Shown here one piece after another: positions 1 to 32,000 of a DNA stretch of 32,000 nucleotides (position 1 is the stretch's first letter; every line of letters begins with the position of its first letter). The notes beneath the pieces are model-generated. The model saw nothing but the letters and a program-made list of their open reading frames with translations. It had not been told where the DNA came from and did not search any database. A program made the position numbers and the translations under genes. The stretch lies in the NCBI RefSeq assembly GCF_001652585.1, contig NZ_LWLG01000019.1, forward strand, positions 1 to 32,000. The letters are read 5' to 3'. Origin of the DNA: Thermosulfurimonas dismutans. Lineage in GTDB: Bacteria > Desulfobacterota > Thermodesulfobacteria > Thermodesulfobacteriales > Thermodesulfobacteriaceae.

Positions 1-24
1 TATCATTTCCTTTAAACCCTTCAT
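1..24 (-). CDS. 5' end of an unidentified minus-strand gene running off the left edge (M-K-G-L-K-E-M-I...)
   Basis: Reverse complement reads AGGAGG-tatagag-ATG, so a strong SD sits 7 nt upstream of the ATG at 24..22. Only 8 codons are visible, so the product is unknown. Confidence 0.3.
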
Positions 25-171
25 CTCTATACCTCCTTATCCGATATTACTTCCTATTACTTTCTTAGTAATTCCCACAAACCTTGTCAATATATAAACT
101 AAATTTCCAATTTTCCATTAAATTAATTTACCTCTCAATCTGATATTTTATATAACAAATTTACTTAATAT

Positions 172-221
172 ATAACTACCTAATAATTGAAAATTTTAAT
201 TTCCAGATATTAGGTAGTTAT
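172..221. promoter_or_regulatory. Perfect 14-bp inverted repeat ATAACTACCTAATA / TATTAGGTAGTTAT separated by 22 nt, in a very AT-rich intergenic region
   Basis: Arms at 172..185 and 208..221 are exact reverse complements (checked by hand). The repeat lies downstream of the MerR-like gene and about 150 nt upstream of the leftward gene start at 24. Confidence 0.35.
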
Positions 222-366
222 CAATAGAGGGGAGGGGATATTTAAGTTAAGGGAGGCCCAACACGGAAACTTTGATCACGACTATCAAAAAATAAATTAT
301 TCCTTATATTTTGATTTCATTCACAGCAAGAAAAATTAATTATAGCAAATTTAAAACTAGTTTTCA

Positions 367-825
367 TTAAGAATTATTGTTTTTATTCTCTTTTTTCTTA
401 TCTTTATTTAATAAATAGGCTTTATCCCTTAAATATATCTCGCAACTTTCGCACCTCTGCATTTTTTTACAAGCTGAATTTACCAGCTGCCAGCATGGTT
501 TAGCCCTTTCACGGTAGGCCGTACATTCTCGCCGAACTTCTTCTGGACAGTCCTTGATGACCCAACATGGGGTCAATTCCAAAAGTTTTTTTATCCCTGG
601 AATACTAATACCTTCATCGTGAATAAAAGAACGCAGACATTTCAACCATTCAATATCATTATAAGAAAAATATCTCTTATTACCCTTTTTCACGGGCTTA
701 ACCAGGCCCTCTTGCTCATAGATCTTGAGAGTCCTGGGATTAACGCCCAAAATTTTGGCCGCGACCCCAATAGGAAACACAGGCTCATCCTTTTCAGGGA
801 CTACCTTTTCGAGCCATTTAGCCAT
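367..825 (-). CDS. MerR-family HTH transcriptional regulator with a cysteine-rich C-terminal domain (two PCW motifs)
   Basis: The N-terminus FPIGVAAKILGVNPRTLKIYEQEGLVKP...RYFSYNDIEWLKCLRSFI is a typical MerR HTH plus wing. The C-terminus TPCWVIKDCPEEVRRECTAYRERAKPCWQLVNSACKKMQRCESC carries 7 Cys. Confidence 0.8.
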   Translation of the reverse strand: MAKWLEKVVPEKDEPVFPIGVAAKILGVNPRTLKIYEQEGLVKPVKKGNKRYFSYNDIEWLKCLRSFIHDEGISIPGIKKLLELTPCWVIKDCPEEVRRECTAYRERAKPCWQLVNSACKKMQRCESCEIYLRDKAYLLNKDKKKENKNNNS

Positions 826-6748: not shown

Positions 6749-7437
6749 GTGTTCTTCCCAAAATTATTACTATAGACGGTCCTGCAGGGGCCGGGAAGAC
6801 CACTGTGGCCCGTATGCTGGCCCAGAAACTGAAATACGCCATTCTGGAGTCTGGAAGCATCTATCGGACCTTTACCTGGTTGCTCCTTTCTAAAAAACGG
6901 GAACTCCTTCCTCTGAGGAATGAAGCCAAAATCTTGGAGGTTCTTAAAGAGGAGATTCCCAAACTAGATATCAAGGCTGATTCTCAGGGGCTCAAAGTTT
7001 CTTACCAGGGAACGGACCTCACCCAAGAGCTTCGGGAACCTGAGGTGGAGGCCCATGTTTCCGAGGTAGCCGCTCTCCCTAGTGTGCGTAAGTTGGCCAA
7101 TGAAATTCTACAAAGGATTGCGGAAAATAGACCGATAGTGGCCGAAGGACGGGATATGGGATCGGTGGTCTTTCCGAAGACCAAGGCCAAATTTTTCCTT
7201 ACCGCCGATCCCCGTATCAGGGCTGAAAGAAGATATCTTGAATGGCAGGCCAAAGGTCTTGTAGCCTCGAAGGAAGAGGTCCTTTCCAAAATCAAAGAGC
7301 GGGACCATAAAGATTCTTCTCGTACGGAGGCCCCTTTAACGGTGCCAGAAGGGGCCATCGTTATAGACACCACCACTCTATCGCCTGAGGAAGTCGTAAA
7401 TCGCATTCTTGAAGCCCTGAAAAGTTCCCACCCTTGA
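6745..7437 (+). CDS. cmk: Cytidylate kinase
   Basis: ITIDGPAGAGKTT P-loop and the overall Cmk pattern are present, with an ATGA overlap onto the hisC stop. Confidence 0.93.
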   Translation: MSVLPKIITIDGPAGAGKTTVARMLAQKLKYAILESGSIYRTFTWLLLSKKRELLPLRNEAKILEVLKEEIPKLDIKADSQGLKVSYQGTDLTQELREPEVEAHVSEVAALPSVRKLANEILQRIAENRPIVAEGRDMGSVVFPKTKAKFFLTADPRIRAERRYLEWQAKGLVASKEEVLSKIKERDHKDSSRTEAPLTVPEGAIVIDTTTLSPEEVVNRILEALKSSHP

Positions 7438-7491
7438 AGCCTTCCCATATCTCTGGTATAAGCTCATCCAAAGTCTTTGGGAGGACAAATC

Positions 7492-9171: not shown

Positions 9172-9185
9172 AATAAAAATTCCTC

Positions 9186-10064
9186 ATGAAAAAAGGGTTT
9201 TTATACGGATTGGCCTTTCTGGGGGGCGTCTTTCTATTTTTCATGGTTTTAGGTTTTTTACTATCCTTAGGTTTACAATTCCGAGGCCCCTCACATCGCG
9301 AAGCCATTGGTGTAGTTGAAATCAAAGGACTCATTACGGAAGCAGATGAAAAAATCAAAATCCTTGAAGATTTTCGGTATCGCAAAGATATTAAAGCCTT
9401 GGTGGTAAGAATAGACAGCCCTGGTGGAACTGTAGGGGCTTCTCAAGAACTTTACGAGGAACTCAGGAGGATCTCGCGACTAAAACCGGTAGTAGTTTCC
9501 TTAGGATCAGTAGCCACCTCTGGAGCTTATTACGCGGCTTTAGGAGGAACCAAAATCTTGGCTTCCCCTGGAACTATTACTGGTAGTATAGGTGTTCTCT
9601 TACAGATTCCCAACATAGAGGAACTGCTCAAGAAATTGGGCATCAAACCTGTAGTTCTCAAAAGTGGGAAATACAAGGATCTGGTATCTTACTATCGAAC
9701 TCCAAGCCCCAAAGAAAAAAAGATCCTAGAAGAAACTCTTTCGGAAGTACATGAACAATTTATGAGAGCCGTGGCGGAAAGGAGGAAAATACCCCTGGAA
9801 AAAGTGAAAGAATTAGCTGATGGACGAATTTTTACCGGCGAGAAGGCCAAGAAACTAGGCCTCATTGACGATCTAGGCAATTTTATGGAGGCGGTGGAGC
9901 TAGCTGCTAGACTTGGAGACTTAAAAGGAAGACCTCATCTGGTATACGGTAGCGGAAAGAAAGGCCTTCTGAAGAAACTTATTGAGGGTCAATTTGATCT
10001 ACCGCTAGAAAGTTTTTGGTTTTCTCCGTGGTATCTTTGGGATGGAGGTGCCACTCTTCTATGA
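9186..10064 (+). CDS. sppA: Signal peptide peptidase SppA (36K type, S49 family)
   Basis: An N-terminal TM segment is followed by RIDSPGG..., MGSVATSGAYY-like and GSIGV motifs typical of ClpP/S49 peptidases. Confidence 0.88.
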   Translation: MKKGFLYGLAFLGGVFLFFMVLGFLLSLGLQFRGPSHREAIGVVEIKGLITEADEKIKILEDFRYRKDIKALVVRIDSPGGTVGASQELYEELRRISRLKPVVVSLGSVATSGAYYAALGGTKILASPGTITGSIGVLLQIPNIEELLKKLGIKPVVLKSGKYKDLVSYYRTPSPKEKKILEETLSEVHEQFMRAVAERRKIPLEKVKELADGRIFTGEKAKKLGLIDDLGNFMEAVELAARLGDLKGRPHLVYGSGKKGLLKKLIEGQFDLPLESFWFSPWYLWDGGATLL

Positions 10065-11233
10065 AAAGACACGAACTGATCGAAAGGCTCACCGCTCATT
10101 TTCCCGAGTTGCGCAAAAGAGATCTTGAAAGTCTAGTTGAAGCTACCTTTGAAGAGATAAGTCGCTTCCTAAAGGATGGAGGACGAATAGAATTTCGCGA
10201 TTTCGGACGTTTTGAAGTTCATCATGGAAAAGAAAGGATTTTCGTAAATCCTAAGAATGGGGAAACTTATTATTTACCCGGAAATCAACGATTGGTCTTC
10301 AAAGTGGGCAAAGACCTTAAGGAAAGACTCAACACCCCCCCTCTAGCAGCCCTGGATCTGGGCACTCAAACTTTCAGGCTGGCTCTCGGTAAGAAAGAAG
10401 AAGGGGGGTTAAGGGTTATTGCTCGCTATCGAGAAAATGTCCGTTTGGGTGAAGGGTTGGCTAAGTCCGATGAGATTTCCGTTGAGGCCTGGCGCCGAGG
10501 AATCTCGGCCTTGAAAAATTTTTACCAAATTCTTGACACTCTCGAGGTCTCCCATTATCGAGCTATAGGAACTGCAGTTTTTAGAAGAGCAAAAAACATT
10601 TCAAAATTTATACAAGAAGCTAAGGGATTAGGAATTAAAATTGAAGTAATTTCTCCCGAAGAAGAGGCCTGGTTGGTTGTAAAAGGGGTAATGGCTGGTC
10701 TGAAACTACAAAGCGAACGGTTTCTTCTAGTAGATGCTGGAGGAGGAAGTACTGAAATTGTTTTTATTGAAAACGGAAAGAAAATTTGGGAAACGAGTCT
10801 TCCTCTAGGGGTGGTTACCTTAAAAGATCACCTCATCAAAACTTACCCCTTAACCCGAGAGGAATATCGAAGTTTAAGGTCTCATATAGGAAAAGTTCTC
10901 TCAGAGGTAGAATGGCCTAAAAACATAGATTTAGTGGTAGGTTGTGGAGGAAGCGCTAGTCTCTTAGGAGCCTTAGACCTCAAATTGGCTAAATATGTTC
11001 CGGAAAGACTTCATGGACACAAGATCTCTCAGAAAAAAATAGAATCCCTCGGTGAGTATCTCTGGGGGCTATCCCTCTCCAAAATTAGGCGTTTGAGGGG
11101 TATGGAAAGCGGTCGAGAAGATATTGCATTGCCAGGAATTTTAATTTATTCCGAGATATTAAGAAAAACTAACCAATCTCATCTTGTTATTAGTGAATGG
11201 GGACTCCTTGAAGGTCTACTCTTGTCTCTTTGA
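10061..11233 (+). CDS. Fusion protein: IHF/HU-like DNA-binding domain (about 95 aa) plus Ppx/GppA-family phosphatase domain
   Basis: The N-terminus MKRHELIERL...GGRIEFRDFGRFEVHHGKERIFVNPKNGETYYLPGNQRLVFKVGKDLKERLN matches the IHF-beta/HU pattern. It continues without a stop into AALDLGTQTFRLAL...VDAGGGSTE (Ppx/GppA ASKHA fold). The ATG at 10061 overlaps the sppA stop (ATGA). Confidence 0.8.
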   Translation: MKRHELIERLTAHFPELRKRDLESLVEATFEEISRFLKDGGRIEFRDFGRFEVHHGKERIFVNPKNGETYYLPGNQRLVFKVGKDLKERLNTPPLAALDLGTQTFRLALGKKEEGGLRVIARYRENVRLGEGLAKSDEISVEAWRRGISALKNFYQILDTLEVSHYRAIGTAVFRRAKNISKFIQEAKGLGIKIEVISPEEEAWLVVKGVMAGLKLQSERFLLVDAGGGSTEIVFIENGKKIWETSLPLGVVTLKDHLIKTYPLTREEYRSLRSHIGKVLSEVEWPKNIDLVVGCGGSASLLGALDLKLAKYVPERLHGHKISQKKIESLGEYLWGLSLSKIRRLRGMESGREDIALPGILIYSEILRKTNQSHLVISEWGLLEGLLLSL

Positions 11234-11268
11234 GCCAAAAAACTTATAAAATAAGGAGGGGTGCTTAG

Positions 11269-12744
<1,476 letters not shown>

Positions 12745-12746
12745 AG

Positions 12747-13952
12747 ATGCCAATTTATAGCTGGGTAGGTAAAACCCTTTCAGGAGAGGTCAGGCGGGGC
12801 GAGATGGAGGCCCCGGACCCCAAACTGGTAGAGGCTCGCCTAAGACGCCTCCAGCTCATACCGCTTAAGATTACCGAAAAAAAGGAATCTTTTCTGGCTC
12901 GCTTTCAACCTAAAAAGGTTAAGGGCAAAGAGGTGGCCATTTTTACTAGACAACTGGCCACCATGCTAGAATCCGGCCTTCCCCTAGTCCAGGCCCTTGA
13001 GGCCCTGGCCAGCCAACAAAAAAACCCTTACTTTCAGAAGGTTATCCGCAAGATAAAAACCTCCGTGGAGAGTGGCAGCAGTTTGGCAGAATCTTTGAGG
13101 GAATTCCCCAAGATCTTTGATGAGCTCTATTATCAGATGGTTAACGCCGGTGAGGCCGGAGGTAACCTGGATGAAATCCTGAAGAGAATGGCCACCTATC
13201 AAGAAAAAATTCTGGCCATCAAAGCCAAGATTCGTCAGGCTATGATGTACCCGGCGGTGATTATTTTTGTGACTATTGTCGTGCTTTCCATTATTATGGT
13301 TTACGTCATTCCTAAGTTTGCCCAGATGTTTGCTGAGGCTGGACAGGCCTTACCGCTTCCTACCCAGATTGTAATTGCAGCCAGCACTATCACCAAAAAA
13401 TATTTTCCATTTTTCATAGCCGGCCTAATAGGCTTTATCATTATTATTCGCCGTCTTTATCGCACAGAAAAGGGACGTTATAAAATAGACAAATTATTGC
13501 TTAGATTTCCTCTTTTCGGTGACCTCTTGCACAAGTCCGCCCTGGCCCGATTCTCAAGAACTTTAAGTAGTCTCATCGCCAGTGGGGTACCTCTACTTCA
13601 AGGACTTTCCATTGCAGGCAAGGTCTCCGGAAACCGTGTAATAGAAAAAGTAGTAGAAGAGGTGAGACTTAGCGTCTCCGAAGGACAATCCATTGCTGAA
13701 CCCATGGCTGTAAGCGGTTATTTTCCCCACATGGTAACTCAAATGATCTCCGTAGGAGAAGCTACCGGGGCCCTAGAACAGATGCTTGATAAAGTAGCCG
13801 ATTTCTACGAAGACGAAGTGGATCGTACGGTGGACACCATTTCCACCCTTATCGAACCCATCTTAATCGTTTTTCTCGGTGGCATCATCGGAGGTATCAT
13901 CATTTCTTTATATTTGCCTATCTTCAAACTTGCGAGTGTAGTAGGTGGCTAA
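12747..13952 (+). CDS. pilC: Type IV pilus assembly / type II secretion platform protein (PilC/GspF family)
   Basis: Two GspF repeats are present ([15 protein letters not shown]... and [15 protein letters not shown]...) with three TM segments. No pilB or pilT is adjacent. Confidence 0.9.
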
Positions 13953-14887
13953 AGGCCGACCTCTCTCAACTGTTTAAGGAGTTCCTTCTGTTTCTTGGTA
14001 AGCCTTTTGGGTATCAAAGGCTCCAGCTTAACGTAAAGATCTCCCTTAGAACCGTTTTCTCCTGGGAGCCCTAGACCCTTCAGTCTGAGTTTGGCCCCCG
14101 GCTTGGTCCCCGGAGGTATCTTGGCCTTTATCTTTTTCCCATACACCGTAGGGATTTCGACTTCCCCTCCCAAAAAGAATGAACTCAAAGGTACCTCTCG
14201 AGAAATAACGAGATCTCTGCCATCCCGTTCAAAAATGGGATGCGGCTCGATCTTGATCTTCAAGAAGAGATCCCGCCTTCGACCATCCGGCCCGATAGGT
14301 CCTTTGGCCGGAAGTCTCAATTTTTGGCCTTCTTTGACCCCGGGAGGAATATGAACTTTGACTTTCTCAGGTTTTCCTAAGGGAGCTATCGAAAGGATCT
14401 TTTCTCCTCCCTGAGCTACCTCCTCAAGGGTTACTGGTAACTCAAGAACCATTTCTTGTTCGAAATCGAATTGCCGAGACGAGCGAGGTTCATAAGTACC
14501 AAAGAGATCACTAAAGAAACCCGAAAGATCAAAGGTGAAACCCTTACTACTCCGCGTCCCCTCTCCGAAACGGAAAAACCTGCCGAAGTCGAAATCGATC
14601 CCGAGATCCCGAAAGATGTTCTCGAAATTGAAGCCTCGAAAGATATCCTCTTGAGAGTAGCGTTTCTCAAATTCCACAGATCCGAACATATCATACTGTT
14701 TACGCTTCTCGGGATCAGAAAGGACGGCATAGGCCTCATTAATCTCCTTAAACTTCTCCTCGGCCTCTTTATTGCCTCGATTACGGTCAGGGTGATACTT
14801 CAAGGCCAGGCGTCGATAGGCCTTCTTGATCTCTTCTTGAGTAGCGTTTCTGGGAACTCCTAAAATCTTATAATAATCCTTCGGCAT
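13949..14887 (-). CDS. J-domain co-chaperone, CbpA-like (DnaJ without zinc-finger domain)
   Basis: J-domain DYYKILGV...YHPDRN...[22 protein letters not shown] is present. There are no CxxCxGxG repeats, and DnaJ C-terminal beta domains follow. Confidence 0.85.
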
Positions 14888-14927
14888 GCCTTAAAGTTAA
14901 AACGGAAAAAGGACGAGTCAAGAAAAG

Positions 14928-15012
14928 GTGGCTCCCCGAGGGTTTAGGGGGGTGGAGGTGGGTTATCGTCTGAGGGTAGAGACGATGAGGGGGGCGTCCC
15001 TCAGGGAGCCAC
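14928..15012 (-). terminator. Long nested stem-loop between resB and the J-protein gene; probable intrinsic terminator or structured RNA element
   Basis: Outer arms 14928..14942 (GTGGCTCCCCGAGGG) and 14998..15012 (CCCTCAGGGAGCCAC) pair at 14 of 15 positions. An inner hairpin ATCGTCT/AGACGAT lies at 14965..14971 and 14980..14986. On the minus strand the structure is followed 1 nt later by TTTTCTT. Confidence 0.4.
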
Positions 15013-15040
15013 TCTAAATTTATACCACAACTGCAAATAG

Positions 15041-16321
15041 TCAAGTAAGGTCTATTAAGTATTTGTTAACGAATCTTTCGATCTGCTTTTTGAGATCTTC
15101 CCGGTAGCGTTTGCTATAACCTCCCACGATAACCCGAGAGCCCTTTTCGTGAGGTCTAATATAGACCCAAATTACCCGGTGGGTGAAAAAGAAAGCTGCA
15201 AAAATACCAAGGATCATTAATAGAAAACCTATCCATACCAGGATAGCGCCAGGATCCTTTCTCACCTGAAGTCCGGTCATAAAAATGGGCTTGGCTTCCA
15301 ACATCGAAAGAGAAATCTTATGGGGAGAAAAGGAGAGCTCCTGCCGATGGCCTTCAATCAACCAAATCATCTGGGGTTCATGCCCTTCCTTGGTTATCCA
15401 GACCTTGGCCATCCGGAAACCGTGTGCCTCTCCGTACTGGATCAGTCCAATAGTAAGGTCCTCTTCCTCCCAGCTTCCATCACGGAAAGGCTTAATCACT
15501 AAGTCTTTACTCTTGTTACCAATTTCAACCCTTATTTTAATAGCGGCATATTCTTGATAAGAAGATTGATAGAAACGGATTTTTTTATACTCCAAAGGAT
15601 GGTTTACCCTTATTAAATAGTTAAATGATTGGTTTCCATCTATAACGGTTACATGAGAACGATAATCCTTCGGCATGCCATTGGGATAAAATTCAATCTC
15701 GAACTTATCCAGTTTAATATAAAAGGGCAGAGAAATGTAACCCTTCTTTTGGAAAGGAAAAACCTTATTGCTCTTCTCTCCCTCAAGGATATTCATATAA
15801 CCTCGGTAGCCGTAAATAGCCCCAATTAGAGCTCCGATCACAATGACCAAAATGGATCCATGTACAAAATAGACCGAAAAATAGCTCCACCGGAAACGAT
15901 CTTTAACCCCCAAGAAACCCTCTTTAAGGGCCTTGATGTCAAACTCCTTTTCCAAGGAGCTTTTTAATTCCTCTGGGCTCTTAGAAGTAATAATTTCCTT
16001 ACGCATGGGCAACTTTTCAGGATCTATCGACCAAGGATCCCGACGATAGAGTCCTAGAGAAACCGGAAATCTCTTTGCGGAACAAAAGATGAGATTGAGC
16101 AAAAATACTGAAAGAAGTGCAATATACCACCAAGAATGATAAGCATCATAAAGCTGGAAAAAATTAATAATTTTGCCCCAGAAAGATCCATATTTGGCAA
16201 AGTAAAAACCGGGTTCCTTTCCTTGAGGAAGGATTGTTCCTAGAATAGAAGTTGTTGCCAGCGCCAAAAACAGGAAGATGGCCAGTCTGAGAGAGGAAAA
16301 AAAATCAACTATTTTTTTCAT
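15041..16321 (-). CDS. resB: Cytochrome c biogenesis protein ResB/Ccs1 (system II)
   Basis: The N-terminus [33 protein letters not shown] is the ResB signature, followed by a large periplasmic domain and a C-terminal TM. The start was moved to the ATG at 16321. Confidence 0.85.
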
Positions 16322-16478
16322 CTTGCACCTCTTCGTTCTCTTCTGATTTGATAGCCTTCTTGAAGTTTTTAATACCTTCTCCGAGACCTCTACCCAGTTC
16401 AGGCAAACGACTAGCCCCAAAAATAAGCACTATAATCAAAATGATAAGTAATAATTCCGGAAGACCTATGCCAAACAT
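16305..16478 (-). CDS. tatA: Twin-arginine translocase subunit TatA (57 aa; not in the supplied ORF track)
   Basis: Hand translation gives [62 protein letters not shown] lies 6 nt upstream of the ATG at 16478. The 3' end overlaps the resB start by 17 nt. Confidence 0.82.
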
Positions 16479-16538
16479 CCAAGCCTCCTAAAAAGGTTTA
16501 AAAACTTTCCCTGCATTTTAAAGCAGGAGGCGTTAAGG

Positions 16539-17006
16539 TCAAGGAAGGTAAGAAATGAGCTTCCCGGAAATGTAAAGGGCACACCCCCAGAAATCCTCTT
16601 CGCATTTTAGGATAACGTATCCCGGTTCTAACTCCGCCGAAAATGGGATCTTTTTTTCCAGTCGCAGGCGATCCAGGGTTAGACGGTCAAGGATCACAAT
16701 ATTACGGGTGGCAAAGCGTCCGAATCGCTGGAGGGCCGCACTGGTAGGTTTAAGGTAACCAGAAACCTTGCGCAGGAAAAGAAGCCCTGCGGTCTGGACA
16801 CGTAAACTCTGCAAGGCTTCGAAATGTTCTGTACGGGTAAAAAGCCAGTAATTTTTGGCCGTAGCCAGAAAAAGATAGGGCTCAAAAAGCGTGGGGCTGA
16901 ATCCAAAACGCTCCTCAAGGTATCCAAGGATATGGGCTCGTTCCTCGTCGGAAACCGGTCTCGGCCATGAGGCCCGGGGATCAAGTTTTTTGATCCTCCT
17001 TTTCAC
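16539..17006 (-). CDS. Hypothetical protein resembling the C-terminal (pre-PUA/PUA-like) region of RsmF-type methyltransferases
   Basis: GTGA overlap with the upstream methyltransferase gene. The combined length (309+155 aa) is close to my recollection of full-length RsmF size. The tail GYVILKCEEDFWGCALYISGKLISYLP resembles the PUA-like end of RsmF. The assignment is by pattern only. Confidence 0.5.
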   Translation of the reverse strand: MKRRIKKLDPRASWPRPVSDEERAHILGYLEERFGFSPTLFEPYLFLATAKNYWLFTRTEHFEALQSLRVQTAGLLFLRKVSGYLKPTSAALQRFGRFATRNIVILDRLTLDRLRLEKKIPFSAELEPGYVILKCEEDFWGCALYISGKLISYLP

Positions 17007-17932
17007 ACCTGCCTCCTCAATTTAACCACAAAAAAACCTACCGCCCCTATCTCATGGGCGTAAAATCGTTTGGCCTTAACGAGCTCAGGATGAAAGGGCT
17101 TGCCCTCCCATTCGGTAAGACCAGGGTGAGAGGGTAGGGGAGCCTCCCAGGAAAGGACCTCCGCCTGCCGTTTGCGTAAGAGATAGTCCACCACGGCCTC
17201 GTTCTCTTCTGGATTTATAGTACAAGTGGAGTAAACCAGTATTCCACCTGGCCTTAAAAGATCGTAGGCCCTTACGATAAGTCCTTTCTGAATAGCGGGG
17301 AGATTAGTGTGGCCCTCCTTATGGAAAAGGAGTTCTCCTTCGTAGCCTTTGCGGTATCTTCCTTCTCCTGAACAGGGGGCGTCCACCAGAACCTTGTCGA
17401 AGGTTGTCCCTAGGGGAAACTGTTCCCCCCGATAAACGGTAGTCACTACCGAGGCCACCCCGAGACGCCTTAGATTAGCCACTAAGGCCGTGATGCGATC
17501 CAGGCGCTTGTCGTTTGCCACCACTATAGCCTGATCCTCGGTTAGTTGGGCTATCTGAGTAGTCTTGCTACCCGGAGCAGCGCATAGGTCGAGGATGATT
17601 TCCCCAGGGCGGGGATCCAAAGCATAGACTGGAAGAGAGCTTGAAAGAGTCATGGGATAGATTAATCCCAAATAGTACTCGTCGGTGTTCCCCAAGGATA
17701 TATCTCTGGGTTCTACCCTAAAAAACCAGGGCACGGCCTCCACAGGCGTAACTTCAAATCCCTGCCTCGCTAGTCCTCGGACAACCCGATCAGGATCTTG
17801 GGTCTTTAAGGTATTGAGCCTGAAATAAAGAGGTAGGGGCTCGGAAAGAGCATTCAGAAAGCTCTCATAATTGGGAATAAGATCCTGATAGCGGGAAAAA
17901 TAATCCTCAGCTAGGCTAGAAGCCTTCTCCAT
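17003..17932 (-). CDS. RsmB/RsmF (NOL1/NOP2/Sun) family rRNA cytosine-C5 methyltransferase, catalytic part
   Basis: SAM motif DLCAAPGSKT, motif IV DAPCSGEG and motif VI YSTCT are present. Confidence 0.85.
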   Translation of the reverse strand: MEKASSLAEDYFSRYQDLIPNYESFLNALSEPLPLYFRLNTLKTQDPDRVVRGLARQGFEVTPVEAVPWFFRVEPRDISLGNTDEYYLGLIYPMTLSSSLPVYALDPRPGEIILDLCAAPGSKTTQIAQLTEDQAIVVANDKRLDRITALVANLRRLGVASVVTTVYRGEQFPLGTTFDKVLVDAPCSGEGRYRKGYEGELLFHKEGHTNLPAIQKGLIVRAYDLLRPGGILVYSTCTINPEENEAVVDYLLRKRQAEVLSWEAPLPSHPGLTEWEGKPFHPELVKAKRFYAHEIGAVGFFVVKLRRQV

Positions 17933-18572
17933 TCTTTAAAATCCTCTCAAGCTTCCGGTGATCCTCAACCACCAGATCCGCCTCTTGGAGATGATGCGGA
18001 GCAAGAGTGGTAGTAATGGCGATGCACAAAAGCCCTGCGGATTTAGCCGAACGCACTCCTGCAGGGGCATTTTCTACCGCCAGGGCCTCTTCCGCAGGGG
18101 CCCCAAGCCCCGAAAGCCCGACTAGATACGGATCAGGATAGGGTTTTCGGCGGGGTACTTGGTCCCCGGTAACGATAAAGTGGAAAAGGGAGGCCAAGGA
18201 TTTTGGAAAGACCTCATCTAAGATTTCCTGATGAGAGCTGGTAACCAGGGCCAGCTTGCGTCCTTCCTTTCTTAAATCTGCAAGGAGATCCGGCACTTCT
18301 GGAAAAGGTCGTACCTTGGCCTGGTATTTTTCTTTAAAGATCTTTTTTTGAAGGGAAAAGGCCTTCTTAAAGAATTCGGGCGTAGGTTCGATCCCCTGAT
18401 TTTCAAAGAGACTCCTTGCAGTCTCAAGTTCTATAGCACCCTCATGGAGGTAAATTTCTTCCTCAGGGATGTCCAGCCCCAGCATAGAGAAGGCCTCCCG
18501 CCAGGCCCTCACGTGCCAGGGCATACTATCAAGGATCACTCCGTCTAAATCAAAGAGAAGAACCGGTTTCAT
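17916..18572 (-). CDS. HAD-superfamily hydrolase (beta-phosphoglucomutase/phosphatase-like, subfamily IA)
   Basis: Motif I LFDLDGVILDS, motif II LVTSS and the C-terminal VENAPAGVRSAKSAG are present. Confidence 0.8.
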   Translation of the reverse strand: MKPVLLFDLDGVILDSMPWHVRAWREAFSMLGLDIPEEEIYLHEGAIELETARSLFENQGIEPTPEFFKKAFSLQKKIFKEKYQAKVRPFPEVPDLLADLRKEGRKLALVTSSHQEILDEVFPKSLASLFHFIVTGDQVPRRKPYPDPYLVGLSGLGAPAEEALAVENAPAGVRSAKSAGLLCIAITTTLAPHHLQEADLVVEDHRKLERILKNGEGF

Positions 18573-18856
18573 GAAACTCCTAAGGCCTTTTTAACTTCCT
18601 CCGGGGACTGTCCGTGGACAAGGATAATTTTATCCCGAGCCTTCTCTCCCGCAAGCATTTCAATTTCTTTTTTGCGGACTCCGAGCTTTTTGGAAAGGAA
18701 TTCGATAAGGGCCCGATTAGCCTTGCCCTCTACCGGCGGGGCCGCAACTTTTATCTTTAGACTCGCTCCGTGAAAACCGGCAAGCTCAGTCTTCTTCGCT
18801 CCCGGTTGAAGGTGGACTTTGAGAAGCACCCCCTTGGGATGAGCCTCGATCGCCAA
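18569..18856 (-). CDS. DUF167 (YggU) family protein
   Basis: LKVHLQPGAKKTELAG...LKIKVAAPPVEGKANRALIEFLSKKLGV matches the YggU pattern. The preferred start is the TTG at 18856, 6 nt after GGAGG. The track start at 18907 is also a TTG and would give a 122-nt overlap with DivIVA. Confidence 0.75.
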   Translation of the reverse strand: MAIEAHPKGVLLKVHLQPGAKKTELAGFHGASLKIKVAAPPVEGKANRALIEFLSKKLGVRKKEIEMLAGEKARDKIILVHGQSPEEVKKALGVS

Positions 18857-19262
18857 CTCGTTCCTCCAAGTGCTCGAGATAGGAAAGAAGCAAAGAGCGT
18901 AGATCAAGCCTTATCTTTTCTCTCATTTTCCAGAGCCGCTCAATATCTTCTTCTAAGGCTTTAGCCTCCTTTTCAGCCTCCTCCACTATCTTCCGAGCCT
19001 CAGCTTCGGCCTGGGCCTTTATGGTCTCCGAAAATTCATCCAGCTTGCGCAAGGCCTCTCGAAAGGCCTTGGCCTCGGCCATGAGTTCCTCTATCTCTCG
19101 GTCCTTACGGCTAAGTTCGTCCCTTAACTGATTATTCTCCCGAATAACCTCCTTTACAAAATCGGCCACCTCTTCAAGAAAGGTTCGGACCGCCTTCCGG
19201 CTGTAGCCTACCGGTACCACATTGAAGCTTTTTTCTCTGATATCTTTGGGAGTAAGACGCAT
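18786..19262 (-). CDS. divIVA: DivIVA-domain protein
   Basis: The N-terminus MRLTPKDIREKSFNVVPVGYSRKAVRTFLEEVA (DivIVA lipid-binding domain) is followed by a coiled coil. The ATG at 19262 overlaps the yggT stop by 1 nt. The yggT-divIVA neighbourhood is conserved. Confidence 0.82.
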   Translation of the reverse strand: MRLTPKDIREKSFNVVPVGYSRKAVRTFLEEVADFVKEVIRENNQLRDELSRKDREIEELMAEAKAFREALRKLDEFSETIKAQAEAEARKIVEEAEKEAKALEEDIERLWKMREKIRLDLRSLLLSYLEHLEERVGDRGSSQGGASQSPPSTGSEED

Positions 19263-19558
19263 CACCTTAACCTTACCGCCAGATCGTAAAGGCTCGGCAC
19301 CAAAAATTGCTGAAGGAAAATGATCAGCAAGATCACAATAAGTGGCGAAAGATCAATCCCCCCCAGAGGAGGCAAAAACCGTCTTACACGATAAAGGACC
19401 GGTTCGGTAATTTGATAAAGAAACCTCACTATGGGATTAAAAGGATCCGGATTGACCCAAGAAATGATAGCTCTAATAATGATGATCCACATATAGAAGG
19501 TCAACACCAGATCGATAACCTTGGCCAAAGCCGTGAGAAAATGTGAAATCACAAACAT
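19262..19558 (-). CDS. yggT: YggT family membrane protein
   Basis: 98 aa with two TM regions and the NPIVRFLYQITEPVLYRVRRFLP motif typical of YggT/Ycf19. Confidence 0.8.
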   Translation of the reverse strand: MFVISHFLTALAKVIDLVLTFYMWIIIIRAIISWVNPDPFNPIVRFLYQITEPVLYRVRRFLPPLGGIDLSPLIVILLIIFLQQFLVPSLYDLAVRLR

Positions 19559-25840: not shown

Positions 25841-27262
25841 ATGTTTCCGGAATGGGGTTATTTACTGATGGGTTTTTTGATCGGAGGCGGGGCTTTGTGG
25901 TTACACGCCAAACGGGAAAGGAATGAACTTTTCCAGAAATTTGAAGGCCTGCAAGAAGAACTGATCCAGAAAAAGACGGAGCTGGCGCAGCTCAGTGAAA
26001 GATTGGCCCGAGAAGAGCAGTACAGAGAGAAGCTGGAGACGGAAAAGGCCGAACTCTTCGAGAGACTTGAGGAAGCCCAAAAGGAACTCGCCCTGCGGCA
26101 GGCAGAAATTGCCAAGCTCAAGGAAAGGATAACCCAGGAGGAAGAACATTTCCGGGAAAAACTCGAGATCATAGAGAAGGCCCAAAAGGAGCTGGAAAAC
26201 ACCTTCAAGGCCCTGTCTTCGGAGATTTTTCAGAAAAACACGGAAAATTTCTTAAAGCTAGCCCAGGATCGTCTTTCCGTTTTCAGAGAGGAAATTCAGG
26301 GGCAACTCAAAGCCAAAGAGGAGGCCATTGACCGGCTGACCCAGCCTATAAAGGAGGCCTTGGAGAAGGTAAACCGCGAAATCAAGGAGATGGAGGAGAA
26401 ACGAGAGGGGGCTTACAAAAGTCTTCAAGAGAGCCTCCGAAACCTGGTGGAGGTATATCTCCCAAGGCTTCAAAAAGAGACGGAAAATCTTTCGAGAGCC
26501 CTCAGACAGCCTAGAATAAGGGGCAGGTGGGGAGAAATTCAGCTAAAGCGTGTGGTAGAAATGGTGGGGATGCTTCCTAAGTGTGACTTTGAGGAACAGA
26601 CATCTTTTTCCACCGATGAGAGGACCCTCCGGCCGGACATGATCATCAGGCTTCCAGGAGGGAGGATTATTGCGGTGGACGCCAAGGTTCCCTTTGAGGT
26701 CTACATAGAGGCCATTGAAGAAGAAAACGAGGATGAGGCGCACAAAAAGATACAGGAATATGTGGCGGGGCTCAAAAACCATATTAAAAGTCTATCCCAG
26801 AAAAGATACTGGGAGGCGATAGAGTCCCGGTGGCAAAAGAGCCCGGAATTTGTCATTCTCTTTTTGCCGGCTGAAGGCCTGTTTTCGGCGGCTTTAAAGA
26901 GCGATCCCGAGATCGTGGAGTTCGGTGCCAAACACAAGGTCCTTCTGGCCACCCCGATAACCCTCATAGCCATCCTCAAGGCCGTGGCTTACGCTTGGCA
27001 GGAACAGGAGCTTGCCGAAAACGCGAGGGAGATCGCCCATTTAGGGAAGCAACTTTATGAGCGTCTTAGAGTTCTCACCGAGCACTTCAATGATCTGGGA
27101 AACAGACTAAAGCAGGCGGTAGAGGCCTACAACAAAACCGTGCGTTCTTACGAAAGCCGAATTCTGGTCACCGCCCGGAAGTTTGAGGATTTCCGCATGA
27201 TCTCCCCGGAAAAGAAAATCCCTGACTTAACCGAAATTTCCACCTATCCTTTGGAGAAATAA
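25841..27262 (+). CDS. rmuC: DNA recombination protein RmuC
   Basis: An N-terminal TM and a long coiled coil are followed by the C-terminal RmuC nuclease-like domain (RPDMIIRLPGGRIIAVDAKVP, FVILFLPAEGLFSAAL). AAGGAGG lies upstream. Confidence 0.9.
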   Translation: MFPEWGYLLMGFLIGGGALWLHAKRERNELFQKFEGLQEELIQKKTELAQLSERLAREEQYREKLETEKAELFERLEEAQKELALRQAEIAKLKERITQEEEHFREKLEIIEKAQKELENTFKALSSEIFQKNTENFLKLAQDRLSVFREEIQGQLKAKEEAIDRLTQPIKEALEKVNREIKEMEEKREGAYKSLQESLRNLVEVYLPRLQKETENLSRALRQPRIRGRWGEIQLKRVVEMVGMLPKCDFEEQTSFSTDERTLRPDMIIRLPGGRIIAVDAKVPFEVYIEAIEEENEDEAHKKIQEYVAGLKNHIKSLSQKRYWEAIESRWQKSPEFVILFLPAEGLFSAALKSDPEIVEFGAKHKVLLATPITLIAILKAVAYAWQEQELAENAREIAHLGKQLYERLRVLTEHFNDLGNRLKQAVEAYNKTVRSYESRILVTARKFEDFRMISPEKKIPDLTEISTYPLEK

Positions 27263-27367: not shown

Positions 27368-27396
27368 TTGAGATTGGGGCAGTTTGGGTGTATTAA
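27368..27396 (+). promoter_or_regulatory. Candidate promoter of the RHH-PIN operon (TTGAGA - 17 nt - TATTAA)
   Basis: Hexamers at 27368..27373 and 27391..27396. The antitoxin ATG is 20 nt downstream. Confidence 0.4.
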
Positions 27397-27416
27397 ATTG
27401 TAGTGGAGGTGATGAA

Positions 27417-27635
27417 ATGCGAGCAGTTTTGTCGGTAAGCCTTCCCGAAAAGCTGGCCAGGGAGTTGGAGGCTTTCGCCAAGGAAACCGGCCGCAATAAA
27501 AGCGATATCGTACGAGAGTCTCTAACCCTTTATCTCTGGGAAGCCCGGTTCAAGCGTCTTAGAAAGCAGCTCAGGCCTTTCGCCAAAAAGGCTGGTTTGA
27601 TGACCGAGGAAGATGTTTTTGAGCAGATTTCATGA
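27417..27635 (+). CDS. Ribbon-helix-helix (CopG-like) antitoxin
   Basis: LSVSLPEKLARELEAFAKETGRNKSDIVRESLTLYL is an RHH fold pattern. The ATG at 27417 follows GGAGGTG (track start at 27384 rejected). ATGA overlap with the PIN gene. Confidence 0.8.
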   Translation: MRAVLSVSLPEKLARELEAFAKETGRNKSDIVRESLTLYLWEARFKRLRKQLRPFAKKAGLMTEEDVFEQIS

Positions 27636-28033
27636 GGGTAGTCTTCGATACAAATGTTTTGGTGGCGGCTTTTGTCACGGAAGGATTATGTTCTGTGTTA
27701 CTCGCCCGTGCTCGTCGAGGAGAATTTGATCTTTTCGTTTGCCCGAAGATTTTGGAAGAATTTGAAAGGATTCTATCGGAAAAGATAAAAGTTCCGCGAG
27801 CCCTGATTGAAGAAGCTTTAAGTATGATCTTGGAAGCCTCCGAGATGATACAGCCCACTAGAGCCATTCAAGGAGTTTGCCGCGACGAAGATGATGACCA
27901 GATCCTGGCCTGTGCCCTTTCAGCCGAAGCGGATTACCTCGTGAGCGGGGATAAAGATCTTTTGGAGATTGGTAGCTTTGGAAACCTTAAAATCGTCCCT
28001 CCGAGAGATTTTGAGGCCTTGTTTGAGGATTAA
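27632..28033 (+). CDS. PIN-domain toxin (PIN_3/VapC-like ribonuclease)
   Basis: MRVVFDTNVLVAA (first acidic residue), CRDEDDDQILACA and VSGDKDLL (further acidic residues) are present, with typical TA operon architecture. Confidence 0.85.
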   Translation: MRVVFDTNVLVAAFVTEGLCSVLLARARRGEFDLFVCPKILEEFERILSEKIKVPRALIEEALSMILEASEMIQPTRAIQGVCRDEDDDQILACALSAEADYLVSGDKDLLEIGSFGNLKIVPPRDFEALFED

Positions 28034-28141: not shown

Positions 28142-28420
28142 ATGATAATCCCAGAACCCGGCCAGATAGTAAGGGTAAGGAACCAGACCTTTTTAGTTCA
28201 AGATGTTCACCCCTACTCAAACCCTGAGGCCACCTTTCACAAAGTCACCCTTGAGTCCTTGGAGGATCACCGCTTAGGCACATCCCTTGAAGTTATTTGG
28301 GAGCTTGAAGTCTCTCCCCGGGTCGAAGACGTGATAAGTTTTCCCGACCTTTCGGCCTGGGACCCTCCGGAAAGATTGGCCTCGGGTAAAAATATTTTGG
28401 ATCTGGAGTGGAGATCATGA
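28142..28420 (+). CDS. 92-aa protein resembling only the N-terminal domain of defence-island SNF2-type helicases; possible internal-deletion remnant
   Basis: [17 protein letters not shown]...[29 protein letters not shown]...DPPERL follows the N-terminal pattern I recall for SNF2 helicases encoded beside large methyltransferases. No ATPase motifs follow. The stop overlaps the hsdM ATG (ATGA). Confidence 0.45.
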
Positions 28421-30873
28421 ATAACGGAAAAATCACCTTGAAACAGCTCGAAACACACCTGTTTAAAGCCGCCGATATCCTGAGAGGCAAGATGGATGCC
28501 TCTGAATATAAGGAATACATCTTCGGCATGTTGTTTCTAAAGCGAGTTTCCGATGTCTTTGAGGCCAAGCAGGAAGAACTCAAAGAAAAGTTTAAAGCCC
28601 AAGGCTTTTCGGACCAGGAAGTAGAAGAACTTATCGAAGACCCCAATTTATACGCTGAGACCTTTTTTGTCCCTGAAAGGGCAAGGTGGAAGAACATCCT
28701 AAAACTTAAAGAAGATGTGGGAAACCAGTTAAACAAGGCCCTTTCCGCTTTGGAAGAACACAATCCCGAACTGGAAGGCGTTTTGAGGCATATAGATTTC
28801 AATGCGGTTAAGGGAAAAACCCGCCTCAAAGATCAGCAACTGGTGGATTTGATCCACCACTTCAATAAATACAGGTTAAGAAACGAAGATTTTGAGTTCC
28901 CTGACTTACTGGGAGCGGCCTATGAGTATCTGATTAAAGAATTTGCGGACTCTGCGGGCAAAAAAGGCGGCGAGTTTTATACTCCTTCGCAAGTAGTGCG
29001 GTTAATGGTGAGGCTTGTAAAACCGCAGGAAGGTATGACGGTGTATGACCCAACTTGTGGTTCCGGAGGTTTCCTCATCCAGGCAAGGCAGTATGTGGAG
29101 GAGCAAGGGCAGGATCCGAGAAACCTGGCTCTCTACGGTCAGGAATTGAATGGAGTTACCTGGTCGATCTGCAAGATGAATATGATTCTGCATGATATTC
29201 CCGATGCCTATATAGAGAATGAAGATACCATTACCACTCCTATGTTTGTTGAAAATGGATACATAAAGCGCTTCGACAGGGTTTTGGCCAATCCTCCTTT
29301 TTCTCAGAACTATAGCAAAGCAAACATGCAATATCCTGAAAGGTTCAAGTATGGCTTCACTCCGGAAAATGGAAAAAAAGCCGACTTGATGTTTTTACAA
29401 CACATGATCGCCAGCCTTAAGGATGATGGCGTTATGGCCACCGTAATGCCTCACGGAGTTCTTTTCAGAGGGGGGCAGGAGAAGGCCATTAGAGAAGGAA
29501 TTGTAAAGGATGACCTGATTGAGGCCATAATAGGCCTTCCCCCAAAACTTTTCTATAACACGGGCATACCTGCCTGCATCATAGTGATAAACAAGAGAAA
29601 GCCACCCCATCTCAAAGGAAAAATTCTCTTTATAAATGCTGATCGGGAATACGGAGAGGGAAGAAACCAAAACTATCTTAGGCCTGAAGACATTGAGAAA
29701 ATTGTTACCGTCTTTGAGGAGAAAAAGGAAATTCCGAAGTATTCAAGACTTGTGGATCTCAAGGAAATTGAGGAAAACGATTTTAACCTGAATATAAGAA
29801 GATACGTTGACAACTCTCCGGATCCTGAGATTGAGGACGTCCACGCCCATCTTGTCGGTGGAGTGCCCAAAAGAGAAGTAGAAATCTACAAAAAACAGAT
29901 GGAGAAGTTCAGAATCGGCCCGGAGGTTTTATTAAAGGAGAAAGATGACCGGTATTTTGAATTCAAAGAGATAAGCGAAAAAAACAAAATAAGAGAGATA
30001 GTTGAAAATCACAGTGGAGTTAAAGGAGTAATCTCAGAGCATTTTGAAAGGCTTTCCGAATGGTGGGAGAAGGTAAAAAAGGAGATAGAGGGTTTTCACG
30101 GCGGGAGCAACCTCTGGGATTTCAGAAACAGGGCAATAGCTGATTTGAAAGAAAAGTTACTGCCTCTTGGCGTTCTGGATGAGTTTCAGATTGCTGGCGT
30201 ATTTGTCAACTGGTGGGAAGCCCTGCGATACGACTTTAAGACCATCATTTCCTCCGGCTGGAGTAAAAGGCTGATTGAAGACGACAGGATTAAGAAAAAA
30301 TTCTTTTCTCAAGATTTAGAGGAGATCGAAGAGCTAGAGAGCAGGATTGCAGAAGTTGAAGGCGAACTGAACGAACTTCTAGATGAAGTTGAGGACTGGG
30401 ATGAGGAAGAATACGGAAAGAAGACCGCCAGTAAAGTGAAGAATTACCTGAAACAGATCGCCAAAGATTTGCGAGCCACTTTGCAGGAATCCGCCCTTAG
30501 AGAAGCCTCAAAGTGGGAAAGTTTGATCCAAAAAATAGAAAAAAAAGAAAGAGAACTGAGAAAGATTAAAAGAGACCTGAGAACAAAGGAGCAAGAGCTT
30601 GAAGAGAAAATAAAGCACAAGCGAGAATCTTTAACCGAAGGAGAGGCGAAAGAACTGCTCCTTGAGAAGTTTTACGATTTGATAAGCCAGCAGTTAGAGA
30701 AGTATCTGAATGCTGAAAAGAAAGACCTGATTAAGATTTTTGAGAAGCTGTGGGACAAATACAGCGTTTCACTGGAACAGTGGAAGAAAGAGCGAGATGA
30801 GGAAGTGCGAAAGCTTGACGATTTTCTGATAAGGCTGGGGTACTATGGAATATCTGCAAAAACTAGGACTTAA
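28417..30873 (+). CDS. hsdM: Type I RM-type N6-adenine DNA methyltransferase (HsdM family) with ~350-aa C-terminal coiled-coil extension
   Basis: HsdM N-domain [39 protein letters not shown] motif [13 protein letters not shown] and catalytic motif IV NPPF (29290..29301) are present. The ATG at 28417 follows GGAGTGGAG. The sequence after about residue 470 is coiled-coil and charged. Confidence 0.9.
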
Positions 30874-30892
30874 TGAGAGGTAGATTAAGCTA

Positions 30893-31057
30893 ATGAAATT
30901 TGTAAAAGAAAACAAGGTTATAACCCTGTCCTCCGCAAAAAATTTGATACCTGATGTTTCGGACAAGACACTTTATAGAGACTTGCAGGAGTTGGTTAGA
31001 AAAAAGATACTAAAAGAAATTGGTGAAAAGAAGGGAAGAAAATATGTTCCTGCATAA
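30893..31057 (+). CDS. Small (54 aa) winged-helix DNA-binding protein (not in ORF track)
   Basis: Hand translation gives MKFVKENKVITLSSAKNLIPDVSDKTLYRDLQELVRKKILKEIGEKKGRKYVPA*. The pattern is that of DeoR/Fic-C-terminal-type wHTH. The SD is weak (GAGAGG 12 nt upstream). Confidence 0.5.
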   Translation: MKFVKENKVITLSSAKNLIPDVSDKTLYRDLQELVRKKILKEIGEKKGRKYVPA

Positions 31058-31152
31058 CAGGAATTTATCAGACATAACAACCATATTTTGGGCATTTATA
31101 TGAATGGAACAAAATAAGGTGATATAGTTTAATAAGAGGAGAGATAACCGAA

Positions 31153-31968
31153 ATGTACGAAGACTGTTTTTTGGCTTACCTGGACATACTGGGTTTTAAG
31201 GATAAAATAAAAGAGACAGAAATAAACCTAAAAGAATTAAAAACTTTAATTGAAGCTTTAAAAATAAATACGAAGTTCACACAATCAGGTGGAAAAAAGA
31301 CAACAGCTAGTGGGACGCTCGAAATACGGAGTTTCTTCTTTTCAGACAGTTTCCTTTTCATGATGAAAGCAAACAAAGAAAATCTACCACATCTCTTTCT
31401 TATTATCCGGTATCTGCAAGATAGACTTTGGGAATACAAACTGTGTTTAAGAGGTGCTATGGTAAAGGGGAAGATGTACTGGCCTAATATAAGAGAGAAC
31501 ATAATTTTAGGTCCTGCTATGATTAAAGCTTATAAGCTGGAGTCTGAAGTTGCAATATACCCAAGAATAATTGTAAGCGAAGATCTATACCGCTACATCA
31601 AAGATAAGAAAATTTCTGCATATCCTGTGTCCGAAGAGGGGGAATTAAAAGAATTTATCAAAAAAGACAAAGATGGCGTTTATTTTTTTGATATACTTAA
31701 TCCAAATATTTTGAGAAAAAAAGGAGAAAAGATAATTACGATAAATGAAAGAGAAAACATGATAGATAATGATACAAAATACGGGAAGTCTTTTAGTATT
31801 ACATGGAATTCATCTGAAGTTAGTAATTACGAGAATATCATAACTACAGTAAAAGAAATAGTCAAAAATAGTAAGGGAAATCAAAATCCGGTGGTTAAGC
31901 AAAAATATAGTTGGTTGTCGTACTATTTAGAAGAAGTACAAGAAAGAGAAAAGGAGGGCAAGAAATAA
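31153..31968 (+). CDS. Hypothetical protein with class III nucleotidyl cyclase-like (palm fold) motif pattern
   Basis: AGAGGAGAG SD upstream. Motifs hand-aligned to the cyclase homology domain are FLAYLDILGF (metal Asp 1), EIRSFFFSDSFLF (Asp 2), LCLRGAMVKGKMY (R.G..G), and ILGPAMIKAYKLES...PRIIVSE (G..VN.A.R.E...I.VS, with Asn to Ile and Arg to Lys). The gene is very AT-rich. The coding call is solid, but the function is an inference. Confidence 0.6.
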   Translation: MYEDCFLAYLDILGFKDKIKETEINLKELKTLIEALKINTKFTQSGGKKTTASGTLEIRSFFFSDSFLFMMKANKENLPHLFLIIRYLQDRLWEYKLCLRGAMVKGKMYWPNIRENIILGPAMIKAYKLESEVAIYPRIIVSEDLYRYIKDKKISAYPVSEEGELKEFIKKDKDGVYFFDILNPNILRKKGEKIITINERENMIDNDTKYGKSFSITWNSSEVSNYENIITTVKEIVKNSKGNQNPVVKQKYSWLSYYLEEVQEREKEGKK

Positions 31969-32000
31969 TAGATAACATTTCTGAGGATTGTTCAAAGAAA

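Follow-up and report, generated by a model that had tools for sequence, protein, structure and literature searches.

The 32,000-nt stretch of Thermosulfurimonas dismutans DNA analyzed here (hereafter the window) carries at its right-hand end hsdM, the gene for the methyltransferase subunit of a restriction-modification (RM) system of type I, and, downstream of it, the open reading frame (ORF) that is the subject of this study. We call this ORF the cyclase-fold gene, after the predicted fold of its product. The encoded protein agrees in 100% of its residues with OAQ19970.1 / WP_068671705.1, which the databases list as a hypothetical protein of T. dismutans (P0001 in our set of relatives). The ORF is present with exactly the coordinates, strand and length given in an earlier note, which had been made from the sequence alone. 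The features of the locus are collected in Table 1.

Table 1. The cyclase-fold gene, its predicted domains and the features around it in the window.
Feature	Position in window	Strand	Description	Basis
Cyclase-fold gene	31153..31968	+	Complete ORF, 271 aa; ATG start, TAA stop at 31966-31968	
Predicted divergent class III cyclase-homology (palm) domain, residues 1-142	31153..31578	+	Carries D11 and D65 (putatively metal-binding), R100-G101 (phosphate-type), G120, E130 and P137-R138	Foldseek, hhalign, conservation
Family-specific alpha/beta region and long helical hairpin, residues 143-271	31579..31965	+		Own model, conservation
Ribosome-binding site (Shine-Dalgarno)	31134-31143	+	AAGAGGAGAG; strong, about 10 nt 5' of the ATG	Read off the sequence
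hsdM, type I RM methyltransferase subunit	28408..30873	+	821 aa	Pfam N6_Mtase (1.5e-109) and HsdM_N
3' relic of a Schlafen AlbA_2/HATPase_c_4/winged helix-turn-helix gene	30848..31057	+	In-frame TAG at 30881-30883	Comparison with locus L066
Start of an ORF running off the window	31962..32000	+	Reads EIIDNISEDCSKK; similar to the short hsdS-5'-like stub ORFs of close relatives	Frame translation

The G+C content of the cyclase-fold ORF is 32.1%, compared with 46.0% for the whole window, and the lowest-G+C 816-nt segments in all 32 kb start at positions 31041-31181. At the scale of the gene, this agrees with the earlier description of the region as the most AT-rich part of the window, though the first 500 nt of the window, at 27% G+C, are locally below even the region of the cyclase-fold gene. 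The low G+C content of the gene agrees with horizontal acquisition.

The N-terminal part of the protein contains four motifs, which the earlier note had recognized as those of class III nucleotidyl cyclases and had assigned to a cyclase-homology region of about 145 residues. All four are found at the residues it gave. FLAYLDILGF contains D11; FFFSDSF, 54 residues on, contains D65; LRGAMVKG contains R100-G101; and the fourth motif, GPAMIKAYKLES...IIVSE, spans residues 120-143. To examine the fold, we built an AlphaFold2 model from an alignment of 111 sequences (A1), with pLDDT of 93.6 and pTM of 0.91, and searched it against the PDB with Foldseek. There were 45 matches at E <= 1e-3, and all 45 are class III adenylyl or guanylyl cyclases, the best being CyaB (3r5g; E = 2.2e-05). 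The matches include, besides CyaB, Ma1120 (4wpa), soluble adenylyl cyclase, soluble guanylyl cyclase, Cya2, Rv1900c, and CyaC. The target-normalised TM-scores of the top ten matches range from 0.17 to 0.58, with about 0.6 reached on stand-alone catalytic domains. By these matches, the N-terminal part is predicted to have the beta-alpha-alpha-beta-beta-alpha-beta palm fold and to superpose on solved class III cyclases.

The other kind of palm that had been considered possible, that of GGDEF or Cas10 proteins, does not fit. Of the 50 PDB fold matches shown, none is a GGDEF or Cas10/mCpol structure by its description, and the GG[DE][DE]F / GGDD hairpin motif is missing from the window protein, in which the hairpin reads F-S-D-S. 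A search of a viral structure library yielded generic cyclase and GGDEF proteins only, with the GGDEF ones at E = 0.04-0.1.

At the level of sequence, we compared the family profile, using hhalign, with an alignment of seven bona fide cyclase domains that we had taken from the PDB search results. This gave a 134-column, fully colinear alignment of the same four blocks, with a weak score (E = 0.014, probability 3%), in which D11 falls on the beta1 Asp, D65 on the Asp of the GD motif, R100 on the R-I-G Arg, and G120...E130-S131 on G..VN.A.R.ES. Scans of the window protein with Pfam, NCBIfam and PADLOC models produced no match, and PF00211 did not match it even at E <= 1. Likewise, no cyclase was retrieved from the PDB by sequence searches with the window protein (phmmer) or with the 111-sequence profile of the family, the latter not even at E <= 10. 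Sub-threshold PF00211 matches were found in four of the 111 relatives (best E 9.4e-4). One relative with fused TPR repeats (P0233) matches PF00211 at 9e-4 over residues 19-165, with 19.3 bits against the cutoff of 21.9, and the Clostridium gelidum relative P0103 bears the UniRef name 'Guanylate cyclase domain-containing protein'. In PHROGs, two families were matched, both of 'unknown function'. Pfam also reports a 'YlcJ-like' match in 11 relatives (best E 0.006); we take it as spurious, as YlcJ is a small Escherichia coli protein known solely from a small-protein screen. Taken together, mainly the predicted fold and, in addition, the register of the motifs suggest that the N-terminal ~142 residues are very probably a divergent class III cyclase-homology domain.

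Residue conservation was counted over 249 relatives, among which are representatives at 50% identity. D65, R100, G101, E130, P137, and R138 are conserved in 100% of them (rounded), D11 and S64 in 98%, D172 in 93%, D174 in 96%, K251 in 98%, and W254 in 96%; G14 and G120 also belong to this set with 93-100% conservation. The conservation of D11 and D65, which the earlier note had named as a test of its reading, is thus seen across the family. Hence both metal-binding Asp residues and the triphosphate Arg, that is, the 'C1-type' half of the cyclase site, are kept throughout. The other half is different. The positions of the canonical transition-state Asn and Arg are occupied in the window protein by I124 and K128, and the note had remarked that a changed or lost chemistry may follow from this. 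The remark is right, and the replacement is family-wide: position 124 is I in 55% of the relatives, V in 25%, and N in 12%, position 128 is K in 36%, E in 24%, and R in 7%, and the N...R pair of helix 4 is retained in only 6 of the 249. The position of the base-specifying residue, Lys for ATP or Glu for GTP, four residues before the second Asp, is F61 in the window protein and varies within the family (R, T, S, F, W). In the alignment, the 'C2-type' half of the site (ribose Asn, transition-state Arg, base-specifying residue) is gone from the family as a whole.

The C-terminal 129 residues have conserved positions of their own, in particular D172-x-D174-G175, D180, E192 (the weakest, 65%), and the helix motif K251-Y252-x-W254. 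Modelled alone, this part has pLDDT of 88.2, and Foldseek found no known fold for it in the PDB (best E = 1.1). The library scans were equally empty, in line with the earlier remark that the last ~120 residues match nothing. The assignment of the C-terminal strands, up to about residue 217, to the rest of the cyclase-homology domain is unsupported, since the 129 residues alone match no PDB fold.

Compared with class III cyclase domains (PF00211, PROSITE PS50125; P. aeruginosa CyaB 3r5g, M. avium Ma1120 4wpa, Synechocystis Cya2 2w01), the protein shares the palm fold and the order and spacing of the key elements: the hh.DI.GF strand holds the first Asp and the beta2-beta3 hairpin the second, beta4 has the Arg-Gly, and helix 4 has G....A...ES. 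Unlike them, it has FSDS in place of GD, falls below the Pfam threshold, and is free of sensor and membrane domains. It is also without three of their residues, namely the ribose Asn, the Arg of the transition state and the Lys/Glu that specifies the base, and has an additional 129-residue C-terminal domain with its own invariant residues.

These observations suggest how the protein might work. It would be an enzyme using nucleoside triphosphates (NTPs) and two metal ions, in which the metals would be bound by D11 and D65 and the triphosphate by R100. The residues canonically supplied by the partner subunit, i.e., the base-specifying Lys/Glu, the ribose Asn and the transition-state Arg, would be replaced by the invariant residues peculiar to the family, E130, R138, D172, D174, K251, and W254, and because of this replacement the product is probably not an ordinary 3',5'-cyclic nucleoside monophosphate (cNMP). 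We give genuine NTP-dependent catalysis about an even chance; ordinary cNMP synthesis is unlikely at best.

Alternatively, the protein could be an inactive pseudo-cyclase. Its palm would then be only a sensor that binds a nucleotide (or a phage protein), and the effector or interaction module would be the C-terminal domain. The family-wide loss of three residues that active cyclases have (the Asn, the Arg and the one that specifies the base) fits this explanation, as do the near-invariant acidic DxDG motif and the K/W pair in the C-terminal domain and the presence, among the fold matches, of 6yii, an ATP-binding protein that resembles class III cyclases but is not annotated as one. However, both Asp residues, the neighboring Ser/Gly, and R100 are almost absolutely conserved in about 250 very divergent sequences, which is expected of a working two-metal site and not of a decayed one. 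Moreover, the C-terminal domain is unlike any known toxin or nuclease fold. We therefore consider a pseudo-cyclase quite unlikely.

The family is large. A hidden Markov model scan of 1.84 billion cluster representatives (50% identity) yielded 14,734 representatives at E <= 1e-3, of which 9,376 pass E <= 1e-10 and 1,632 pass E <= 1e-30. As the family profile matches no PDB cyclase even at E <= 10, the 14,734 representatives are members of the family and not ordinary cyclases. Nearly all are single-domain proteins of 230-330 aa. Bacterial hosts include Campylobacterales, Aquificales, Acidobacteria, Planctomycetes, Bacteroidota, Firmicutes, Melainabacteria, Proteobacteria, and Myxococcales; archaeal hosts are Methanosarcinaceae and Methanocorpusculum; and copies on plasmids are found in Bacillus, Acinetobacter and rhizobia. 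A tblastn search of phage records gave no match. Rare fusions also occur: P0233 (627 aa) has the TPR repeats at its C-terminus, and a gene in locus L022 (9362-10735) encodes an N-terminal nitroreductase-like domain. In loci L029 and L049, the family domain is preceded by an unannotated N-terminal extension of ~330 aa. Neither the libraries scanned nor the papers searched, on mCpol/Panoptes and on Pycsar-like cyclases, RM-embedded systems, and DefensePredictor systems, describe the family.

In four loci, the gene is present as a tandem pair of paralogs, lying between hsdM and hsdS (L013 2063-3858, L014 8946-10741, L045 9944-11540, and L056 3174-4761). Both paralogs keep the LD.LG, FSD, RG, and YPR motifs that hold D11, D65, R100, and R138. 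The pairs would fit a dimeric working unit, as in the cyclase fold, and suggest that the proteins may form heterodimers in these lineages.

To characterize the genomic context, we analyzed 59 genome loci and seven close metagenomic loci in addition to the window; a copy of the gene was detected in 63 loci. In about 15 of the 63 (about a quarter), hsdM, hsdS or hsdR lies no more than five genes away, and the order on one strand is consistently hsdM, the cyclase-fold gene, hsdS and, in some cases, hsdR (L002, L003, L013, L014, L017, L034, L045, L054, L056, L060, and L069). The most frequent Pfam families among the 137 immediate neighbors are Methylase_S (8), N6_Mtase (7), HsdM_N (6), ResIII and Eco57I (5 each), DEAD (4), SLFN_AlbA_2 and Fic (3 each), followed by Schlafen-group-3 helicase, DUF4391, HSDR_N, integrase, and RhuM. 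In L003, positions 6541-19473 comprise one type I RM operon in which four cargo units lie between hsdM and hsdR, first a Schlafen-like gene, followed by the cyclase-fold gene, hsdS, and Hachiman (HamA and a helicase). Further defence genes are found near the gene in single loci. In L004, the gene is flanked by a DISARM-like methyltransferase and an SNF2 helicase; L002 has an ORF6N-domain gene nearby, L060 has MNT/HepT, L005 has mad3/mad8 of MADS, and L041 has PDC-S41 and a ThsA-like SIR2 gene. About three quarters of the loci have no RM gene nearby. These include solitary copies on plasmids of Bacillus, Acinetobacter and rhizobia, where the products are annotated as 'hypothetical proteins', copies beside integrases, and L061, where the gene lies next to outer-membrane genes. 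The family is thus a defence-island resident, and the mainly housekeeping surroundings that the earlier note had named as grounds for rejecting a defence link are not what the loci show.

The window follows the same pattern. Its HsdM scores 272 bits with TIGR00497 (cutoff 242.75) and 1283 bits with PADLOC MTase_I, so the type I-type methylase previously noted upstream is indeed one. The cyclase-fold gene starts at 31153, after the end of hsdM at 30873 and on the same strand, and is followed by an hsdS-5'-like stub. This is the placement of cargo between hsd genes, and the same order in the relatives bears out the proposal that the gene sits in an accessory slot of an RM operon. Hachiman, MNT/HepT, Fic, and Schlafen-like genes also occupy the slot between hsdM and hsdS, which speaks for a cargo slot and against a functional partnership.

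PrrC/RloC anticodon nucleases are known cargo embedded in type I RM operons. That such operons take up unrelated defence modules is established, as for DarTG2 in the RM island of enteropathogenic E. coli (PMC12255303). Like these systems, the cyclase-fold gene is an unrelated module that lies between hsd genes in the orientation of its neighbors; unlike them, it encodes a protein with a completely different fold and, presumably, different chemistry. There is no sign that the RM complex controls the cyclase-fold protein.

The repeated placement of the family in methyltransferase operons (type I RM, DISARM-like methyltransferase/SNF2, MADS) could also mean that it has no defence function of its own and instead assists or regulates methylation-based systems, for instance, as a modulator of restriction or methylation, or else that it is a generic mobile-element gene with another role. 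However, the three quarters of loci without a nearby RM gene, i.e., the plasmid solitaries, the copies with integrase neighbors and L061, do not agree with such a role, and the hsdM-hsdS slot also holds unrelated known defence cargo. We consider this explanation very unlikely.

The earlier note had suggested that the gene may be the cyclase of a Pycsar-type pair, with an effector encoded further downstream. The closest relatives (81-85% identity, from locus searches) have three different downstream arrangements. In L060 and L068 (81% identity), the gene is followed by a 44-aa ORF, a gene for a 112-aa protein, hsdS, MNT/HepT, and hsdR. In L066 and L067, it is followed by a 53-aa ORF, a gene for a PHP-like protein of 737 or 936 aa, and then hsdS. 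In L069, hsdS comes directly after the cyclase-fold gene. The 112-aa protein (L060 10952-11290; L068 1694-2032) has three predicted transmembrane segments and no Pfam match, and is found in these two relatives only; it may be either an effector specific to their lineage or cargo with no link to the gene. The 737/936-aa protein (L066 1653-3866; L067 1681-4491) has the N-terminal PHP-like motif WDLHVHTPFSY and weak matches to AAA_23 (E = 1e-3) and MADS mad8 (E = 3e-6), making it possible further defence cargo.

The short ORFs in these loci start with MVDDISEGCSKK... in L066/L067 and with MVDDIPEGRRRVRLGG... in L060/L068, whereas true HsdS N-termini read LPEGWRRVKLGE or VPEGWKRVRLGE. Their likeness to the HsdS start is seen in DIPEGRRRVRLGG / DISEGCSKK compared with LPEGWRRVKLGE (window 31962-32000; L060 10821-10955; L066 1470-1631). 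We infer that these ORFs are probably 5' stubs of hsdS left by later insertion of cargo at the hsdS start. The last 39 nt of the window are closest to the L066-type stub (ISEDCSKK compared with ISEGCSKK) and not to the L060 type. The 44-aa ORF of L060 may also be a mini-hsdS without both target-recognition domains.

No effector gene conserved beside the family was found in the 59 genome loci and the seven close metagenomic loci. In particular, among the 59 genome loci we considered and rejected a conserved transmembrane effector and a conserved small antitoxin-like ORF, as neither is present there, and no larger neighbor is conserved apart from the hsd genes. The layout of a cyclase with a dedicated effector, as in Pycsar or Panoptes, is therefore not a property of the family. 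Moreover, none of the families in PADLOC-DB, PycC included, matched the window protein at E <= 1.

One may still ask whether the T. dismutans gene belongs to a two-gene signalling system of the Pycsar or Panoptes type, in which a cyclic nucleotide would control a membrane or other effector encoded just past position 32000. A cyclase with a small transmembrane effector is the architecture of both Pycsar and Panoptes, and the three-segment transmembrane protein encoded after the gene and the 44-aa ORF in L060 and L068 resembles it. However, this transmembrane gene is limited to these two loci, the corresponding place being taken by hsdS in L069 and by the PHP-like ATPase in L066/L067, and a conserved partner, transmembrane or other, is lacking from the 59 genome loci. 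The hsdS-5'-like stub between the cyclase-fold gene and the transmembrane gene suggests independent insertion, and the end of the window resembles the other stub type. Finally, there is no PADLOC PycC match, and the Asn/Arg pair with which canonical cyclases form a cNMP is absent. Two-gene signalling is thus highly unlikely for the T. dismutans gene, and the Pycsar-type proposal does not hold for the family; an effector architecture restricted to the L060/L068 sub-lineage is a minor possibility.

Cyclase-fold enzymes are central to bacterial immune signalling, as in Pycsar, CBASS, type III CRISPR, and Panoptes. To our knowledge, in all of these the cyclase is wired to an effector. Like Pycsar (PycC with PycTM or PycTIR), the family has a class III cyclase fold and resides in defence islands, and in two close relatives a small transmembrane protein follows the gene; unlike it, the family has no PycC match, no conserved effector, and no catalytic Asn/Arg. 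The minimal Cas10-type palm cyclases of mCpol/Panoptes (OptS) are also small palm nucleotide-cyclase-like proteins in defence loci, but the cyclase-fold family lacks both their GGDD-type motif and an obligatory 2TM-beta or CARF-TM partner.

We slightly favor the reading that the cyclase-fold protein is a stand-alone, horizontally mobile enzyme carried as single-gene cargo of defence islands, often between hsdM and hsdS. It would act alone, as an abortive-infection or back-up defence module, without a dedicated effector gene. Several points weigh against this reading. The likeness of the sequence to cyclases lies below every curated threshold, and the hhalign probability is low. As the ribose-positioning and transition-state residues are missing, the chemistry could be another one, or the activity could be lost. 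The family has no characterised homolog, and the window ends 32 nt past the stop codon of the gene, with the true downstream gene lying beyond position 32000. The defence role is a case of guilt by association, and we regard it as modestly favored. Overall, the protein is a candidate defence enzyme with a well-supported fold and with a function, comprising catalysis, substrate and anti-phage role, that we infer.

A bolder version of the single-gene reading, possible but doubtful, is that the family represents a new, widespread class of single-protein immune enzymes in bacteria and archaea. Here, a C1-like palm would be completed by the novel C-terminal domain and not by a second cyclase subunit, the reaction would yield a non-canonical nucleotide product or nucleotidylate a target, and the enzyme, with no separate effector, would form a back-up layer in methylation-based defence operons. 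In any case, the family is set apart by its size (about 9,400-14,700 clusters at 50% identity, spread over bacteria, archaea, plasmids, and phages), the lack of a Pfam, NCBIfam or PADLOC model, the half-kept cyclase site, and the want of any conserved partner gene. Should the protein prove to be an active defence enzyme, the cyclase palm would have been put to a new use, and a considerable gap in the annotation of defence islands would be closed.

Between hsdM and the cyclase-fold gene, the earlier note had placed a small winged helix-turn-helix gene. There is no intact gene there. The 54-aa ORF taken for it (30893-31057) is the tail of the Schlafen-like relic, as comparison with L066, L003, and L002 shows. 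In L066, an ORF at positions 10..495, 5' of the cyclase-fold gene, matches HATPase_c_4 at 6.8e-21, and its end (...KYVPT) was compared with the relic in the window. L003 and L002 have intact versions of 531 and 541 aa, respectively, upstream of the cyclase-fold gene; they cluster together, and the one in L003 matches SLFN_AlbA_2 and HATPase_c_4. In the window, the relic frame has TAG at 30881-30883 where CAG is expected, and it overlaps the end of hsdM, whose last eight codons (GISAKTRT, then stop) are relic DNA read in another frame. To judge from these comparisons, a deletion that removed most of the Schlafen-like gene fused its remnant to the 3' end of hsdM. A different origin of the 54-aa ORF, as the C-terminal remnant of a Fic gene, was ruled out, as it has no similarity to the Fic protein of L001. 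Since the cyclase-fold gene is intact without its Schlafen-like neighbor, it is independent of that neighbor. With the truncated Schlafen-like gene on one side and the hsdS 5' stubs on the other, the hsdM-hsdS junction can be seen as a cargo slot with recombination scars.

Further upstream, genes for an RHH (CopG-type) antitoxin and a PIN_3 toxin overlapping by 4 nt (27384-28033) form a VapBC-like pair between RmuC (25841-27262) and the RM operon, and the accessory island seems to start directly after rmuC. A 92-aa ORF without a Pfam match (28142-28420) overlaps the start of hsdM by 13 nt and may be a gene fragment.

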